Source: an uncultured Chloroflexia bacterium (GTDB lineage: Bacteria; Chloroflexota; Limnocylindria; Limnocylindrales; CSP1-4). From it: a stretch of 64,000 bases of DNA. The position numbers and the translations under genes are program-made. The stretch spans positions 9,385-73,384 of the forward strand of contig CAVVCZ010000008.1 in the NCBI GenBank assembly GCA_963746845.1, written 5' to 3'. The notes beneath the pieces were generated by a model. The model was not told where the DNA came from and made no database searches. It saw nothing but the letters and a program-made list of their open reading frames with translations. Shown one piece after another: positions 1,077-7,067 of this stretch (the stretch's first letter is position 1; every line of letters starts with the position of its first letter).

Positions 1077-2429
1077 TCAGCCCCCGAGCACCTCGGTGAA
1101 AGCCCGGTACGACGGCTCGATCGGGCCGGCGAGGCCATCGCCGCCCGCTCCCTCGTCGCCCAGGGCGAACCGGCGCGCGTCCGGCGTCTTCACGCCGTTG
1201 CCGGACAGGATCGCGACGACCTCGTCGCCGTCCCGGATGACCCCGCGAGCCCGGGCCGCCGCAACCGCGGCGACGGTCACGCCGCCGGCGGTCTCGACGA
1301 AGATGCCCTCGTTCGCAGCCGTCCGGCGGATGGCATCGGCCGTGGCCGCGTCCGGGATCCCCTCGATGGAGCCGCCGGTCCGGCGCGCGAGGTCCAGCGC
1401 CTCGCCTCCGTCAGCGGGCGAGCCGATCGCGAGCGAGCGGACGATCGTGTCCGGTGCCCGGACGGGGCGGATCTCGTCGACGCCCTCGGCGAAGGCCGTC
1501 GCGACCGGGGCGCAGCCGGCCGGCTGGCCGCCGACGAACCGGACGGTCTTCCGCTCCACCAGCCCGATGTCGGCGAGCTCCTCGAAGCCCTTCGCGATCT
1601 TCGTGAACATCGAGCCCGAGGCGATCGGCCCGACGAGGACATCCGGCAGGCGCCAGCCGAGCTGCTCGGCGACCTCGTAGGCAATGGTCTTGCTGCCCTC
1701 GGCGTAGAACGGCCGCAGGTTCACGTTGACGAACGCCCAGCCCTCCTCGTCGGCGATCTCGAGGCTCAGGCGATTGACCTCGTCGTAGGTGCCGTTCACC
1801 CGGACGACGGTGGCGCCGTAGCCCAGGGCGTGCTCGACCTTGGCCGGCTCGAGATCCGCCGGGACGAAGACGAAGGCGCGCAGGCCCGCAGCCGCCGCGG
1901 CCGCCGCCGTCGCTCCGGCGAGGTTGCCGGTCGAGGCGCAGGCGAGGGTGTCGAACCCGAACTCCACGGCGCGAGCCGTCGCGACGGCCACGACCCGGTC
2001 CTTGAAGCTGAGCGTCGGGTTGCGCGTGTCGTCCTTGAGATGGAGCGTCGTGCCGGTCCCGAGGTCCAGGTCGCGGGCAAGACGCGGGGAGCGGACGAGG
2101 GCTGTCGAGCCGACCGCGAGACCGCGCTCCGGGGCATGCTCGACCGGGAGCAGCTCGAGGTAGCGCCAGATCCCGGGAGCCCGGGCGGCGATCGCCTCGT
2201 GGCTCAGGGCCGAGCGGGCCACGTCGTAGTCGTACACGACCTCGAGCGGCCCGAAGCACGCCGGACACACGAAGGCCGGACCGATGGCCTCGAGATGCCC
2301 GCAGGCGCGACAGCGCAGGCCCTGGACATGGGAGCGACCCGACGTCGGGAGCTCGGGCGACGCGCCGGCGCCGTCCGGGGTCGCGGGGCGGGCGGGGGTT
2401 TCGAGGGTCATGCCGATCGTCATCTCCAT
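1077..2429 (-). CDS. thrC: Threonine synthase (PLP fold II) with N-terminal CxxC-CxxC
   Basis: NPTLSFKDR PLP-lysine motif, ASTGNLA, VNVNLRPFYAEGSKT, EGIFVETAGG; start could be 2411. Confidence 0.85.
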   Translation of the reverse strand: MEMTIGMTLETPARPATPDGAGASPELPTSGRSHVQGLRCRACGHLEAIGPAFVCPACFGPLEVVYDYDVARSALSHEAIAARAPGIWRYLELLPVEHAPERGLAVGSTALVRSPRLARDLDLGTGTTLHLKDDTRNPTLSFKDRVVAVATARAVEFGFDTLACASTGNLAGATAAAAAAAGLRAFVFVPADLEPAKVEHALGYGATVVRVNGTYDEVNRLSLEIADEEGWAFVNVNLRPFYAEGSKTIAYEVAEQLGWRLPDVLVGPIASGSMFTKIAKGFEELADIGLVERKTVRFVGGQPAGCAPVATAFAEGVDEIRPVRAPDTIVRSLAIGSPADGGEALDLARRTGGSIEGIPDAATADAIRRTAANEGIFVETAGGVTVAAVAAARARGVIRDGDEVVAILSGNGVKTPDARRFALGDEGAGGDGLAGPIEPSYRAFTEVLGG

Positions 2430-2670: not shown

Positions 2671-3471
2671 TCACCGGAGCGCCCCCTCCAGCGCGACCCG
2701 GGCATCCGTGCCGGGATCGCGATCCTTGACGATCAGCGGCGTCGAGATCGACAGGCCGAGGGTCCGTGCCCACTCCCCGGGGAGTGGCCGCGTGCCCGGG
2801 ACGACGATCGCGCCGGGTGGGATGACCAGCGGCCGGTCCGGCGTGCCCGTCAGCTCGACCTCGCGGACCAGGTCGAAGACGCGGGACGTGCCGGTCAGCA
2901 CGACGCCTGCCCCGATCACCGCCCCGTGCCGGACGAGGACGCCGTCGAGAAGCCGGGAGCCGGCACCGACGAAGACGTCGTCCTCGACGATCACGGGCCG
3001 CGCCCCGGGCGGCTCGAGGACGCCGCCGATCGTGACGCCGGCCGCGAGATGGACCCGCTCCCCGATCTGTGCGCACGAACCGACGAGGACATGCGAGTCG
3101 ACCATCGTCCCGGCGCCGATCCACGCCCCGACGTTGACGTAGGACGGCGGCATCACGACCACCCCGGGTTCGAGGTGCGCCCCGGCACGGATCGCCGTCC
3201 CGCCGGGCACGATCCGCCGATCGGCGCCCGGATCGATCGGCGGGAAGGCGGCCCGGTCGTGGAACACGAGCGGGCCCACCTGCCAGGTCGCGGTGGTCCG
3301 GTCGGTGAACGCAGAGAGGATCGCCCCCTTGACCTCCGGCCGCACGCGCCAGCCGTCCGGTGCGGACGCGTCGGGCTCGGCCGCGCGGAGCGTTCCTGCG
3401 GTGAGATCGACGAGGCCCCGTCCAGGGTCCGGGGCCGTCTCGGCAGGGCCCGGCGCCAGCGTCGCGGTCAT
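2671..3471 (-). CDS. dapD: Tetrahydrodipicolinate N-succinyltransferase
   Basis: RIVPGG, VMPPSYVNVGAW, TMVDSHVLVGSCAQIG, IGGVLEP hexapeptide repeats; ATGA overlap with dapA. Confidence 0.9.
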   Translation of the reverse strand: MTATLAPGPAETAPDPGRGLVDLTAGTLRAAEPDASAPDGWRVRPEVKGAILSAFTDRTTATWQVGPLVFHDRAAFPPIDPGADRRIVPGGTAIRAGAHLEPGVVVMPPSYVNVGAWIGAGTMVDSHVLVGSCAQIGERVHLAAGVTIGGVLEPPGARPVIVEDDVFVGAGSRLLDGVLVRHGAVIGAGVVLTGTSRVFDLVREVELTGTPDRPLVIPPGAIVVPGTRPLPGEWARTLGLSISTPLIVKDRDPGTDARVALEGALR

Positions 3472-4448
3472 GCCGACACCTCGTCGAGCGCACGAATCCG
3501 GCCGCCCGCCGCCTCGGCCAGCCCGAGACCACGCAGCGTCACGAGCAGGTCCGCCCGGGCCGCCGGCGCCAGAGGCAGCAGCGGGAGCCGGACGGTGTCG
3601 ACATCCAGCAGGCCCATCAGGGCGAGCGCCGCCTTGACCGGCACCGGGTTCGGACCGCCCGCGAAGTTGTCGAGGAACAGCGGCAGCCACCGATCGTGGA
3701 TCTGGCGCGCCCCATCCCAGTCGCCGGCCGCCGCCGCCGCGCACAGCGCGACCAGCTCACCCGGCACCTCGTTGCTCGCCACCGAGACGACGCCGTCGCC
3801 GCCCAGTGCCAGGATCGGCAACGTCCAGGCGTCGTCGCCGGCAAGGACGGCCACGTCGCGCGGGCGATTGCGACAGATCCGGGCGATCTGTTCGAGGTTC
3901 CCGCTCGCCTCCTTGATCGCCACGACCCGCGGATGCTCCGCGAGGCGGAGGAAGACGTCGACCGGCACGTTCGTGCCGGTTCGCGATGGGACGTTGTAGA
4001 CGACGATCGGGAGGTCGCCGTCGTCGGCGATCGCCCGGAAGTGCGCCTCCAGCATCCGGCCGTCCGGCCGGTTGTAGTAGGGCGCGACGACGAGCGCGGC
4101 GTCCGCGCCGAGATCGGCCGCCCGGCGGGTGGCCGCGATCGTGGCCGCGGTGTCGTTCGTGCCCGTGCCGGCGATCACGGGCACGCGTCCGCGCGACGCC
4201 CGCTCGGCCACGGTCTCGACCGTGAGCGCGATCACGCGCTCACGCTCGACGGGCGTGAGGGTCGGGGCCTCGCCCGTGGTGCCGACCGGGACGAGGCCGT
4301 CGATCCCGGCGAGGACCTGCCAGCGGACGAGCCGGCGAAGGGCGTCCTCGTCCACCGAGCCGTCGGCGGCGAACGGGGTGACGAGCGCGGTGAACGCGCC
4401 GCGGAGCGCGGGCCGAGGCCCGTGGCTCGTGCGATCGAGGGGAAGCAT
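3468..4448 (-). CDS. dapA: 4-hydroxy-tetrahydrodipicolinate synthase
   Basis: GTTGEAPTL, VAPYYNRP, YNVPSRTG, IKEASG, PNPVPVKAAL motifs. Confidence 0.95.
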   Translation of the reverse strand: MLPLDRTSHGPRPALRGAFTALVTPFAADGSVDEDALRRLVRWQVLAGIDGLVPVGTTGEAPTLTPVERERVIALTVETVAERASRGRVPVIAGTGTNDTAATIAATRRAADLGADAALVVAPYYNRPDGRMLEAHFRAIADDGDLPIVVYNVPSRTGTNVPVDVFLRLAEHPRVVAIKEASGNLEQIARICRNRPRDVAVLAGDDAWTLPILALGGDGVVSVASNEVPGELVALCAAAAAGDWDGARQIHDRWLPLFLDNFAGGPNPVPVKAALALMGLLDVDTVRLPLLPLAPAARADLLVTLRGLGLAEAAGGRIRALDEVSA

Positions 4449-4486
4449 CGAAGTCTCCGTTTCGTGGGATGGGTGAGTGGGTCGGG

Positions 4487-5242
4487 TCAGGCGGCCGGCC
4501 GGGCCGGACGATCGAACGCGGCCTCGGCTGTCGTGGTTCGGGCGGCGACGAGGCGGTCGTCGATCACCCGATCGAAGGCATGGATGCCGGGGGCCGGATC
4601 CGTGGTCCGGAGCCAGTCGATGGCAGTGAGTGCGCCCGCCGCGTAGGCGGATCGATCGCGCGCCGTCAGACGCAGCTCCACGGTCTCGCCGGCGGCATCG
4701 AGAGCGACGGTGTGGTGTCCGGGCATCGCCCCGGACCGGACCACCGCCACCTCGTCGACGTCGATCGACAGGTGCGGCGCGATCCGTCGGACAAGCTCCC
4801 GCGCGGTGCCGGACGGGCGGTCGGCCTTCGCCCGGCGATGCCACTCGACGACCGCCGGCTCGAACCCGCCGAGCGCGGCCGCCAGCTCCGATGCCTCCTC
4901 GACGAGACGCAGGAAGAGGGCCGCGCCCGGCGACAGGTTCGGCGCCACGACAGCGGCCGCGCCGGCGCCGAGGAGCCGGTCCGCCACGATCGGCCGGGCG
5001 GCCTCCCAGCCGGTCGTCGCGATCAGGAACCGGCGACAGCCCGCCTCCAGACCGGCGACGAGGTTGCCCGGCACGGCCCGCGCCCGCGAAGCGTCGACGA
5101 CGACGTCGGCGCCGTCGAGCGCCCGCGGGTCGTGCCGGCCGTCGAGCGGATGGCCGAGGACCGTCGCGCCATCGCCGCGGGCCCGGAGCGCCGCGGCGAT
5201 CGCCAGCCCGAGCGGGCCGTCCCCCAGGATGATCGTGGACAT
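4487..5242 (-). CDS. dapB: 4-hydroxy-tetrahydrodipicolinate reductase
   Basis: ATTGW, APNLSPG, EWHRRAKADRPSGTA, G.H.V, A.GAL motifs; RBS GAGGAGG before ATG. Confidence 0.85.
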   Translation of the reverse strand: MSTIILGDGPLGLAIAAALRARGDGATVLGHPLDGRHDPRALDGADVVVDASRARAVPGNLVAGLEAGCRRFLIATTGWEAARPIVADRLLGAGAAAVVAPNLSPGAALFLRLVEEASELAAALGGFEPAVVEWHRRAKADRPSGTARELVRRIAPHLSIDVDEVAVVRSGAMPGHHTVALDAAGETVELRLTARDRSAYAAGALTAIDWLRTTDPAPGIHAFDRVIDDRLVAARTTTAEAAFDRPARPAA

Positions 5243-5307
5243 CGGTGGTGCCTCCTCGTCGTTCCGAGGAGCCACCGGGTGGATGGGAGGCCGATCGTCC
5301 GCCGGAC

Positions 5308-5347
5308 GAATCGAAAGGCCGCGGTCACCGGCTGGGTGTCCGCGGCC
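5308..5347 (-). terminator. Intrinsic terminator-like hairpin of the putative dap attenuator
   Basis: Minus strand GGCCGCGG-A-CACC-CAGCC-GGTG-A-CCGCGGCC followed by TTTCGATTC. Confidence 0.65.
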
Positions 5348-5398
5348 CCTGGAGCCTCCGCGCCCGGAGGCTCCTGTCGGTCGTTCGCTCGCGCGCCG

Positions 5399-5479
5399 TC
5401 AGAGCCCCAGGGCCCGTGCCTCCCGGCAGGGCCGCCAGAGCTTCTTCTTGGCCTCGTCGGTCAGGAAGGTGCGGCGCAT
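5399..5479 (-). CDS. Putative lysine-sensing leader peptide MRRTFLTDEAKKKLWRPCREARALGL
   Basis: 26-aa sORF with AAG AAG AAG (5441-5449) upstream of dapBAD, followed by alternative hairpins. Confidence 0.65.
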   Translation of the reverse strand: MRRTFLTDEAKKKLWRPCREARALGL

Positions 5480-5485
5480 ATGCAT

Positions 5486-5514
5486 ACCTTGCATCGGGAA
5501 TGGAAATCTTGCAA
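5486..5514 (-). promoter_or_regulatory. Putative promoter giving a leaderless leader-peptide mRNA
   Basis: TTGCAA-N17-CAAGGT-N6-ATG. Confidence 0.5.
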
Positions 5515-5630
5515 GCGGCCCGGCGGTTGCGGTTCGGTACCGAACCCGGGCCTCCCTGGTCGAAGCGACGCGCCGAATCCGGTAGACTCCCGTGGCCCTC
5601 GCCCGGCCGCGGCCGACGCGCATGGTGCAT

Positions 5631-5707
5631 GGTGGCCTTAGCTCAATCGGCAGAGCACTGGATTGTGGCTCCAGAGGTCACGGGTTCGAACCCCGTAGGC
5701 CACCCCA
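5631..5707 (+). tRNA. tRNA-His (GTG)
   Basis: G-1, acceptor stem GTGGCCT/AGGCCAC, anticodon loop TTGTGGC, GGTTCGAA T-loop, C discriminator, encoded CCA. Confidence 0.97.
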
Positions 5708-5848
5708 ACGACCTCGTTGGCAGGACGTGGTGCGAACAGTGGTGCGCGCGTTGACCGGATTCACCACGGACGGCTTGCGATTCGACCTGACGTCGGGCAT
5801 TGTGCGTCGCCTCGGGGTACCGTGGAGGAACAGCGTGGTTTGGTGCCC

Positions 5849-6823
5849 GTGAGACGACTGCTTGGGGTCTCGCTCGTTGTCGCATGCCTCGTCGCGGCGT
5901 GCGGATCGAACGCGACCGGACCCACCCCGTCGAGCGTCGTCCTGGCCGCGACCGGCCGGCCGGTCGATCCCTCGATCGGGTCGTGCATGGCCGCCGTGTC
6001 GAGCCTCGCCGCGTTCACGGAACGGCTGGGCAAGGACCTCGCCGCCGTTCGCACGCCCCTCAAGACAACCCCGTTCGACTCGGCCGCGACGGCCGCCGCG
6101 AGCTTCCACGTGTCCGCCACGATCACGGCCTACAAGAGCGGCGAGATCGAGGCGGTCCTGCAGGGATGTCCGGCCACCGCCGTCCTCGCGCCGCGGGTCA
6201 AGAAGCTGATCGACACCGCGGATACGGCCCTCGAACAGGCTCGCGTCGCCAGTATCAACAACCCGGCGACCCAGAAGGCCGCGGCCACCAGCCTCGTCAA
6301 CTTGCTCCCGGAGGTCCAGAAGCTCGCGACCAGGAACAACGAGATCGTCGCAGCGCTCGACCTCACGTCCGGCGTCGCGGCCGGCAGCTCGGCGTCGCCC
6401 GGCGCCGCCGCGGACTGGACGACGGCCGCCAATGCCTACCTCGAGGACACGTACGCCACCTACGGGGCGGCCCGGTCCGCCGCCCAGGAGCTGGCCGGGC
6501 TGGATCCCACCGCGTCGGGGGTCACACCGGACGAGCTGGCCGCGCGCCAGGTCGCCGCCGCAACGGCCTGGACGACGGCCGGTCAGGCGCTGACCCGGCA
6601 TCTCGCGACGATGGACGCCAACGTGGCGCGGCCGTGCTACACCGACGCCTACAGCGCGGACCGAAAGCTCGCCGCACAGTGGCAGAAGCTGCTCGGCGCA
6701 GGGACCGTGCCGGCGGTCGACACCGAGCTCGGCCGGACGGTGATCCTGCAGGCGAACCAGGCCATGACGCAGACGACGGCGTTCCTCACGGGCATGGGCG
6801 CGTACTTCGCCGGCTGTCGCTGA
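5849..6823 (+). CDS. Hypothetical helical lipoprotein
   Basis: Lipobox-like RRLLGVSLVVACLVAAC-G; Ala/Thr-rich helical body; strong GC3 bias. Confidence 0.65.
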   Translation: MRRLLGVSLVVACLVAACGSNATGPTPSSVVLAATGRPVDPSIGSCMAAVSSLAAFTERLGKDLAAVRTPLKTTPFDSAATAAASFHVSATITAYKSGEIEAVLQGCPATAVLAPRVKKLIDTADTALEQARVASINNPATQKAAATSLVNLLPEVQKLATRNNEIVAALDLTSGVAAGSSASPGAAADWTTAANAYLEDTYATYGAARSAAQELAGLDPTASGVTPDELAARQVAAATAWTTAGQALTRHLATMDANVARPCYTDAYSADRKLAAQWQKLLGAGTVPAVDTELGRTVILQANQAMTQTTAFLTGMGAYFAGCR

Positions 6824-6964
6824 GCGCGTCCACCGCGGACGGATCAGCCCGGCGACCCCCCGCCCCACGGAAACCACTGACCGGCCATCCGACGAACCCG
6901 GGACTAGACTTGCCCGACGGCGGCGACCTCCGCCCTTCGCTGGCCGAACCATCGGTTCCGGCCG

Positions 6965-6981
6965 TCTCAGGCGCCTCTCAG
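6965..6981 (+). promoter_or_regulatory. OmpR/MprA-type direct-repeat box
   Basis: TCTCAG-GCGCC-TCTCAG upstream of the HtrA-like gene. Confidence 0.55.
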
Positions 6982-7067
6982 CGACGCCGGGGATGCTCGA
7001 GGGTGAGGCCCCGTCGACGGGGTGACCAACGCTTCCCGTGGCGATCCACACGGAGACCCGCCCTCGG

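Follow-up and report, generated by a model that had tools for sequence, protein, structure and literature searches.

The classical leader-peptide attenuators are those of the trp, his, thr, leu and phe operons of enteric bacteria. They combine a short open reading frame (ORF) holding cognate codons with RNA pairings that exclude one another, and have an intrinsic terminator ahead of the first structural gene. The aminoadipate lysine cluster of Thermus thermophilus is reportedly under a leader-peptide attenuator as well, with Lys codons in a short leader ORF and a terminator. This work concerns a leader that appears to have the same ingredients but lies in another phylum and on the diaminopimelate (DAP) pathway to lysine. 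It stands before dapB, dapA and dapD on the minus strand of a 64,000-nucleotide (nt) stretch of an uncultured Chloroflexia genome (assembly GCA_963746845.1, contig CAVVCZ010000008.1); the whole of that stretch is what we call the window. We believe the element is probably a ribosome-mediated (leader-peptide) transcription attenuator on a leaderless mRNA that controls dapB-dapA-dapD.

The general plan is that of the classical attenuators, and the 5' hairpin within the leader ORF could serve as a pause site. The differences are several. Classical leader ORFs are led by a Shine-Dalgarno (SD) sequence whereas this one should be leaderless, and instead of a long run of regulatory codons it has two fixed ones spaced by one (X-n-X). 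An extra stable hairpin, H2, is predicted between the short ORF (sORF) and the terminator, and in the on state three strands would swap partners along a long zipper. Lys, on the DAP genes, and Met, on metY, do not belong to the classical set of amino acids, and the host belongs to the Chloroflexota.

Two published systems are closer in geometry. The trpL leader of Sinorhizobium meliloti (rnTrpL) is described as a leaderless attenuator: its RNA begins with the AUG of the leader ORF, as we propose here, and ribosome position attenuates transcription (PMC10117765). Unlike the dapB leader it senses tryptophan, and its sequence and phylum are unrelated. In mycobacteria, leaderless poly-Cys sORFs act as sensory first cistrons with cognate codons, and a stalled ribosome unmasks the ribosome-binding site (RBS) of the next gene (Canestrari et al., 10.1101/834739). 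The dapB leader likewise has, by its geometry, a leaderless sORF with cognate codons as its first cistron, and the several loci of one design in the mycobacterial 'ribulon' are matched by the Lys and Met copies found here. The mycobacterial output is RBS unmasking, with no terminator described in the part of the paper available, whereas the dapB leader has a conserved terminator-like hairpin and belongs to another phylum. A survey of Actinobacteria found their lysine and methionine operons to have no RNA elements ahead of them (PMC1262725). Our literature search, with subscription journals outside its coverage, found no leader peptide for lysine or methionine ahead of DAP or metY genes, nor any RNA regulator of lysine (DAP) or methionine genes in Chloroflexi or Limnocylindria. 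An initial annotation of the window, made from its letters, had suggested that a leaderless Lys-codon attenuator on a DAP operon may be undescribed. That suggestion stands for the amino acids and genes but not for leaderlessness itself, which the two systems above already have in print.

Coding signature, regulatory codons and the methionine paralogue

DapB was sought in 41 related genomes and was found in 14 of them, all of one genus; every one of these loci with upstream DNA (14/14) has the same leader, although DapB identity is only 45-78%. The leader is far more strongly conserved than DapB itself. From the conserved core we made a strict pattern, which recovered at least 118 loci in other genomes, and the titles of those listed are nearly all Chloroflexota, 'Chloroflexia' or Candidatus Limnocylindria/Limnocylindrales metagenome-assembled genomes. 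dapB lies behind the pattern in 122 of 133 loci, starting 129-181 nt after the pattern end (327 nt in locus L094). Of the 11 loci lacking it, five have less than 100 nt of downstream DNA, five have only 300 nt, and one is L039. In L039 the terminator 3' arm, the U run and dapB are gone and other sequence lies behind the leader; the contig is rearranged or chimeric. A second model match in L094 (about 1234-1357) was considered as a tandem attenuator and rejected, since it lies behind a run of 10 N and marks a scaffold join.

The sORF behaves as a coding sequence in these relatives. The aligned start codon is ATG or GTG in 117 of 118 unique upstream sequences, the exception being a 1-nt deletion; ATG accounts for 105 of the 117 and GTG for 12. 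All 101 unique copies end in a stop codon (81 TGA, 14 TAG, 6 TAA); its letters vary, but a sense codon never takes its place. Length differences in the N-terminal part are whole codons. In 106 of 117 unique relatives a promoter-like TTGnnn-(16-19)-nAnnnT precedes the start, ending 6-8 nt short of it, and the distance from the -10 hexamer to the start codon peaks sharply, at 6 nt (55 of 117) and 7 nt (50). An SD-like core is found upstream of the sORF start in only 4 of the 117. This promoter spacing and the near absence of SD cores mean that the mRNA should begin at the sORF start codon and so be leaderless.

In the window the sORF has three consecutive Lys codons, and the comparison tells us which of them are conserved. 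The first AAG is invariant in the 101 unique copies. The middle codon is AAG in 85, CAG in 13, and TCG, GCG and CGG once each. The third AAG was fixed by the search pattern in this set, and it is also Lys in the divergent copies found by a covariance model, which read K-A-K, K-S-K, K-R-K or K-P-K-S-K. Locus L166 uses the synonymous AAA. What stays constant is a Lys codon at 12 and another at 6 nt ahead of a conserved UGG-CGG-CCC, which is to say cognate regulatory codons at two fixed positions, as in an attenuator.

The decisive finding of the analysis is, on sequence comparison, a paralogous leader in which these two codons have been swapped. We fetched 15 weaker matches to the leader model from genomes that carry the dapB leader. 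Three were spurious, one was a dapB leader, and 11 belonged to a second leader type; one further model match and one copy in the genome studied here bring the second type to 13. The scaffold is common to both types: a promoter near the start, a short ORF, the [R]-W-R-P / GGCGGCCC strand, the hairpins, and a terminator-like GGGGCCGCGG...CCGCGG-U-run. Exactly at the Lys-x-Lys positions the 13 paralogous leaders have Met-x-Met, where x is Cys in 12 and Gln in one. Behind the copy in this genome is a gene for O-acetylhomoserine sulfhydrylase / homocysteine synthase (metY; TIGR01326 658 bits, cut-off 495) starting with GTG at position 4423 of locus L192, and at the other Met-leader loci the gene begins, by eye, with the same ..RPET.ALHAGQ. 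motif.

A further scan, with the regulatory codons left free, points the same way. It gave at least 119 matches, mostly chance in GC-rich genomes, and 11 among the matches listed have both an sORF and a terminator. All of these are M-x-M (10 MCM, 1 MFM), 10 of the 11 have metY behind them, and at least one locus is shared with the earlier 13. Within this genome the covariance model finds one copy of the dapB leader, and a search for other copies of the scaffold (25 candidates by the W-R-P strand and short ORF, 35 by terminator type) returned only the Lys and Met leaders. The only systematic difference between the two types is two codons that match the pathway behind them. This is hard to explain by a ligand-binding RNA and is what a codon-sensing attenuator predicts. 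The two paralogues amount to a natural codon-swap experiment, and they argue for codon sensing.

RNA structure and the proposed switch

The fold predicted for the 249-nt leader has an energy of -139 kcal/mol, against -113.5 +/- 4.7 kcal/mol in 200 shuffles (z -5.5, none of them as good). Its helices are a long hairpin within the sORF (P1/P2), a helix joining the two ends of the sORF (P0), a small variable hairpin (P3), H2, and a terminator-like hairpin (T). Covariation was measured on a model-based alignment of 69 distinct copies, divergent clades included. P1/P2, H2 and T together have 44 pairs; their cells are paired in 93.2% of cases, compared with at most 53.5% when the strands are slid, and both sides change in 23 of the pairs against 9.1 +/- 1.7 in shuffled alignments, a count reached in 0 of 500. 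Of the 19 pairs of P1/P2, 7 have both-side changes, and 95.6% of their cells are paired; for H2 the figures are 10 pairs, 6 and 84.4%, and for T, made of two helices, 15 pairs, 10 and 96%. At least four T in 8 nt follow the T stem core in 55 of the 69 relatives. A covarying hairpin followed by a T run thus lies between the sORF and dapB, as expected of an intrinsic terminator. In the copy studied here the stem of T has one bulge and a short U run, and the tail UUUCGAUU is only moderately U-rich. A scan of positions 5000-5900 for consensus promoters and terminators called none of either; this is not evidence against them, because the sites are non-consensus (an nAnnnT -10, a bulged stem and a short U run).

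The smaller elements are less certain. P0, codons 2-4 paired with the stop codon and following bases, is suggested: the cognate duplex is worth -11.9 kcal/mol against -8.25 for shuffled 5' ends, but non-cognate partners reach -11.4, and double changes are seen by eye in examples. P3 occurs in relatives, by eye, as CGUC..GACG, CGUUC-GAAG-GAACG and CGCG..CGCG. A pairing of the P2 loop with the 5' arm of H2 was dropped, since clades whose loop differs in sequence no longer have it, by eye.

In the C-terminal half of the sORF hardly anything varies, at third codon positions as little as at the first and second. This could be the mark of a metabolite- or protein-binding switch, either a new class of lysine riboswitch or a protein operator, in which the ORF is tolerated and not used. 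The closed multi-helix fold P0-P1-P2 that is predicted would suit such a switch, and so would the changes that do occur in this half (W15>L, C18>S/F/R/G, E20>K/M/L/T, A23>V), which are non-conservative for the peptide and yet keep the base pairs. We nevertheless consider it very unlikely. A ligand pocket does not explain why the start, the three kinds of stop, the frame and the spacing of the leaderless promoter are all kept, nor why a single scaffold is used in two pathways, the only change being two codons that now fit the amino acid concerned. The invariance is explained by dual pairing in off and on states. No known family is in sight either: with Rfam 15 at E<=10 over positions 4000-7000 of the window, only a tRNA gene reached its gathering score, and the sole other match was a chance-level P13 (19.5 bits against a gathering score of 70, E 8.3). 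There was no T-box match at that threshold in that interval, and the lysine riboswitch RF00168, which the initial annotation had wanted excluded, matched neither there nor in the whole genome (92% complete), where controls matched in 4 of 14.

The same changes bear on the idea that the peptide itself matters, as a nascent-chain arrest motif K-x-K-L-W-R-P that would sense the signal within the ribosome tunnel, or as a 26-residue basic peptide acting in trans. W-R-P does come after the regulatory codons in Lys and Met families alike, and a trans function is reported for the S. meliloti leader peptide peTrpL. Against this, positions 15, 18, 20, 21 and 23 change non-conservatively while the pairing is kept, and one clade ends the peptide three codons earlier. 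In locus L171 (by eye) CGCGGCCC survives as an RNA motif although the frame has changed, and the peptide reads P-I-A-A-R instead of L-W-R-P, which speaks against a peptide motif. We regard this explanation as very improbable. Codon sensing by the ribosome, with the RNA of the sORF as part of the switch, remains the reading we prefer.

It is important to separate two antiterminators that have been proposed for this switch. The initial annotation placed the promoter, the sORF, its Lys codons and the hairpins on the minus strand, and all of these positions hold. It also noted that 5414-5404 is complementary to 5355-5344; this complementarity exists, with 12 pairs and one bulge, but the antiterminator function assigned to it is not supported. 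Whatever the transcript length or ribosome position tried, the pairing lies +6 to +17 kcal/mol above the best fold, because H2 competes strongly nearby, and it covaries no more than shuffled alignments do (2 pairs against 0.9, a count that 105 of 500 shuffles attain). We keep it as a weaker alternative to a pairing of GCGGCCCU, the strand that encodes W-R-P, with the terminator 5' arm GGGGCCGC, which the modelling favours when a ribosome sits on the Lys codons.

The evidence for this second pairing is as follows. Six core pairs are kept in 67-69 of the 69 rows, with one C-G to U-A double change; in locus L178 (by eye) GCGGCCC/GGGGCCGC has become GCGGUCC/GGACCGC. The whole alternative on-state helix of 27 pairs is kept in 92% of cells against at most 54% when slid, and 7 pairs have both-side changes compared with 2.8 +/- 1.1 in shuffles (1/500). 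We also masked the ribosome footprint and folded 67 leaders of the Lys and Met types, the transcript ending once the terminator 5' arm is out (3 loci could not be parsed). When the ribosome stands on the regulatory codons, the mean probability that the W-R-P strand pairs with the terminator 5' arm comes to 0.98 and 0.96; it is 0.41 without a ribosome, and 42 of the 67 leaders cross from below 0.5 to above 0.5. If almost every base serves in both structures, the extreme conservation of the leader would follow.

The mechanism we propose runs as follows. Transcription would begin at, or within 1-2 bases of, the ATG of the sORF, and a ribosome would load on the 5' AUG. When lysyl-tRNA is plentiful the ribosome would reach the stop codon and leave, the released sORF RNA would fold on itself (P0, P1/P2), H2 and then T would form, and transcription would end before dapB. 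When lysyl-tRNA is scarce the ribosome would wait with its A site on either of the conserved Lys codons and keep the first strand of P1 covered. The 3' half of the sORF RNA, left free, could then zip onto H2 as H2 emerges: the 3' strand of P1, GGGGCUCU, would pair with the H2 5' arm, the 3' arm of P2 with the H2 3' arm, and the 5' arm of P2, GCGGCCCU, with the terminator 5' arm before the terminator 3' arm is made. The polymerase would then read through into dapB-dapA-dapD. We infer the translation of the sORF, termination at T, lysine-responsive read-through and the order of folding from sequence and modelling.

Several observations weigh against this scheme. The middle Lys codon is not conserved, and locus L161 reads M-K-K. 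Fewer than four T in 8 nt follow the stem in 14 of the 69 relatives, and the U run of our own copy is weak. The alternative helix is mostly invariant, so its covariation support (7 against 2.8) is thin. Antiterminator pairing is predicted even without a ribosome in 25 of the 67 leaders, most of the Met-type ones included. The full-length leader at equilibrium has the terminator folded in every state, whether free or with the ribosome on the Lys codons or on the stop codon. T being part of the minimum free energy (MFE) structure throughout, read-through would have to depend on a kinetic trap. The antiterminator strand also becomes free when the ribosome stands on the stop codon, and the ribosome must therefore be released quickly if the off state is to form. 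Finally, the genomes of relatives are not independent samples.

These difficulties make it necessary to consider a mainly translational output, in which the position of the ribosome on the sORF frees the dapB SD from a hairpin and T is structural or a constitutive partial stop. The dapB SD does lie in the 3' arm of a hairpin (5252-5271) that is kept with other letters in relatives, by eye. The formation of T at equilibrium in every state and the weak U run of this copy would fit, and the closest published leaderless sORF sensors act on RBS sequestration (10.1101/834739). The distances do not favour it: the SD hairpin is about 125 nt from the sORF stop and about 165 nt from the Lys codons, three stable hairpins intervene, and no conserved pairing between the two came to light, though none was specifically sought. 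T and its T run are conserved and covarying, and in the Lys leaders as in the Met leaders conservation is highest in the strand complementary to the T 5' arm. We judge a mainly translational output unlikely; the SD hairpin may be a second, translational layer of control. As for attenuation of transcription, the conserved start, stop, frame and Lys codons, the covarying terminator and the Met paralogue before metY bear out the leaderless Lys attenuator of the initial annotation as the probable reading. The alignment of dapB upstream regions likewise agrees with it, in that the sORF, the Lys codons and covarying hairpins are conserved in relatives.

In public sequencing data, leader copies of relatives occur in contigs from RNA libraries (4 studies) and run on into promoter-side sequence; these contigs carry no information on start, end or strand, and DNA carry-over is possible. 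Among public runs none covers half of the stretch, and six RNA libraries cover small shares of it.

Coordinates and surroundings of the leader

Table 1. Positions of the dapB leader elements and the genes behind them in the window, with the methionine-type leader of the same genome in the last row
Feature	Position	Strand	Basis or remark
-35-like hexamer TTGCAA	5509..5514	minus	read from sequence; 17 nt before -10
-10-like hexamer CAAGGT (nAnnnT type)	5486..5491	minus	ends 6 nt before start codon
Leader sORF, 26 codons + TGA, predicted peptide MRRTFLTDEAKKKLWRPCREARALGL*	5399..5479	minus	ATG at 5479
Putative regulatory Lys codons AAG AAG AAG	5441..5449	minus	first and third are the conserved ones
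P1/P2, long imperfect hairpin within sORF, second Lys codon to U of stop codon	5401..5445	minus	fold and covariation
GCGGCCCU, codons W-R-P, sORF nt 45-52, P2 5' arm, proposed antiterminator strand	5428..5435	minus	complementary to terminator 5' arm
Suggested helix P0, 3' strand (stop codon and next bases)	5393..5401	minus	pairs with codons 2-4 at 5470-5477; MFE fold
P3, small variable hairpin CGC-GCGA-GCG	5386..5395	minus	by eye
H2, hairpin with perfect 10-bp stem GGAGCCUCCG-GGCG-CGGAGGCUCC	5351..5374	minus	fold and covariation
T, intrinsic-terminator-like GC-rich hairpin (5316-5348) and tail UUUCGAUU	5309..5349	minus	fold and covariation
Terminator 5' arm GGGGCCGC	5342-5349	minus	fold
Hairpin CUCCUCG-GAACGA-CGAGGAG, dapB SD in 3' arm	5252..5271	minus	sequence and fold
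dapB (4-hydroxy-tetrahydrodipicolinate reductase), first structural gene	4487..5242	minus	Pfam DapB_C 82.7 bits (cut-off 27)
dapA	3468..4480	minus	Pfam DHDPS 281.9 bits
dapD	2671..3420	minus	NF008808 239.2 bits (cut-off 204); hexapeptide repeats
Met-type leader, peptide MTTNRRSMCMRWRPRRVEDGV*, hairpins and terminator	contig C4, L192 ~4515-4669, outside window	minus	putatively leaderless

The genes behind the leader are identified by domain, and some of their boundaries need comment. The dapB product scores 84.9 bits with TIGR00036, under the cut-off of 122, and its ATG is preceded by GAGGAGG. The ORF listed for dapA runs from 3468 to 4844; its DHDPS domain begins at residue 147, which puts the start near 4400-4480. 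For dapD the listed ORF is 2671-3744 with the match beginning at residue 113, and the start is not fixed. After dapD on the same strand comes thrC, for threonine synthase (window 1077-2429, TIGR00260 above cut-off), and upstream of the leader lies a divergent tRNA-His gene. The genome has a G+C content of 71.2%.

Relatives often carry GGAAATGG directly before TTGCAT (corresponding to the region of about 5495-5540 of the window). Half-palindromes across the promoter are also seen in relatives, for example TTGCAT..ATGCGTA or CTTGCA..TGCAAG, and these may be an operator for a protein regulator.

A lysine riboswitch and a probable attenuator in one class

The covariance model of the leader matches in 36 of 151 genomes of the class. 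By family, numbered here f1 to f5, the counts are 30 of 44 in f1, to which the genome studied here belongs, 4 of 50 in f4, 1 of 49 in f3 (spurious) and none of 6 in f2. No match was found among 136 genomes drawn from other classes of the phylum. In the sister family f2, the 6 genomes searched have neither the leader nor RF00168, and the DapB query found no match in 16 small f2 genomes (1.0-1.4 Mb).

RF00168 is distributed the other way. It is absent from all 44 genomes of f1, all 50 of f4 and all 6 of f2 that were searched, and it is present in 45 of 49 genomes of f3, another sister family (two of the matches being in unpublished genomes), and in the single f5 genome. In the five loci that were read it precedes homocitrate synthase in all five, for example in L315 (1-340), with NCBIfam confirmation for one. 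Homocitrate synthase belongs to the aminoadipate pathway of lysine synthesis. Taken together, the two distributions place a riboswitch on one lysine pathway and a putative leader-peptide attenuator on the other, in different families of one class. The two devices have much in common, since both stand in the 5' leader of lysine genes with a terminator as output, proposed in our case. The dapB leader differs in its conserved frame and in having its specificity in codons. The f3 aminoadipate genes, with their canonical lysine riboswitch, are in turn unlike the Thermus thermophilus cluster with its reported leader peptide.

It is tempting to go one step further. The Limnocylindria may carry a modular leaderless attenuator cassette, consisting of a fixed RNA zipper (GCGGCCC against GGGGCCGC, with a decoy hairpin between them) whose specificity comes solely from two codons 12 and 6 nt before the switch strand. 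Such a cassette would have been re-aimed at least once, as Lys-x-Lys on dapBAD and Met-x-Met on metY, and in f1, on DAP genes, it would do the job that the lysine riboswitch does in f3 on aminoadipate genes. This is a real possibility, although we would stop short of calling it probable. If it is true, swapping the two codons should suffice to swap the signal.

The element, read as an attenuator, adds new amino acids and a new phylum to the leader-peptide attenuators, and its extra interest is that one scaffold comes in two codon-swapped forms. From these Lys and Met paralogues one may envisage a compact part that a change of two codons could reprogram to another specificity. The work flags sORFs that automatic annotation of such genomes probably overlooks, and it suggests that leaderless translation may be built into gene control in the Chloroflexota. 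For an abundant, uncultured class of soil and freshwater Chloroflexota, it gives a concrete and testable mechanism for the control of lysine (DAP) and methionine genes, in a class where a leader-peptide attenuator and a lysine riboswitch would serve different lysine pathways in complementary families.

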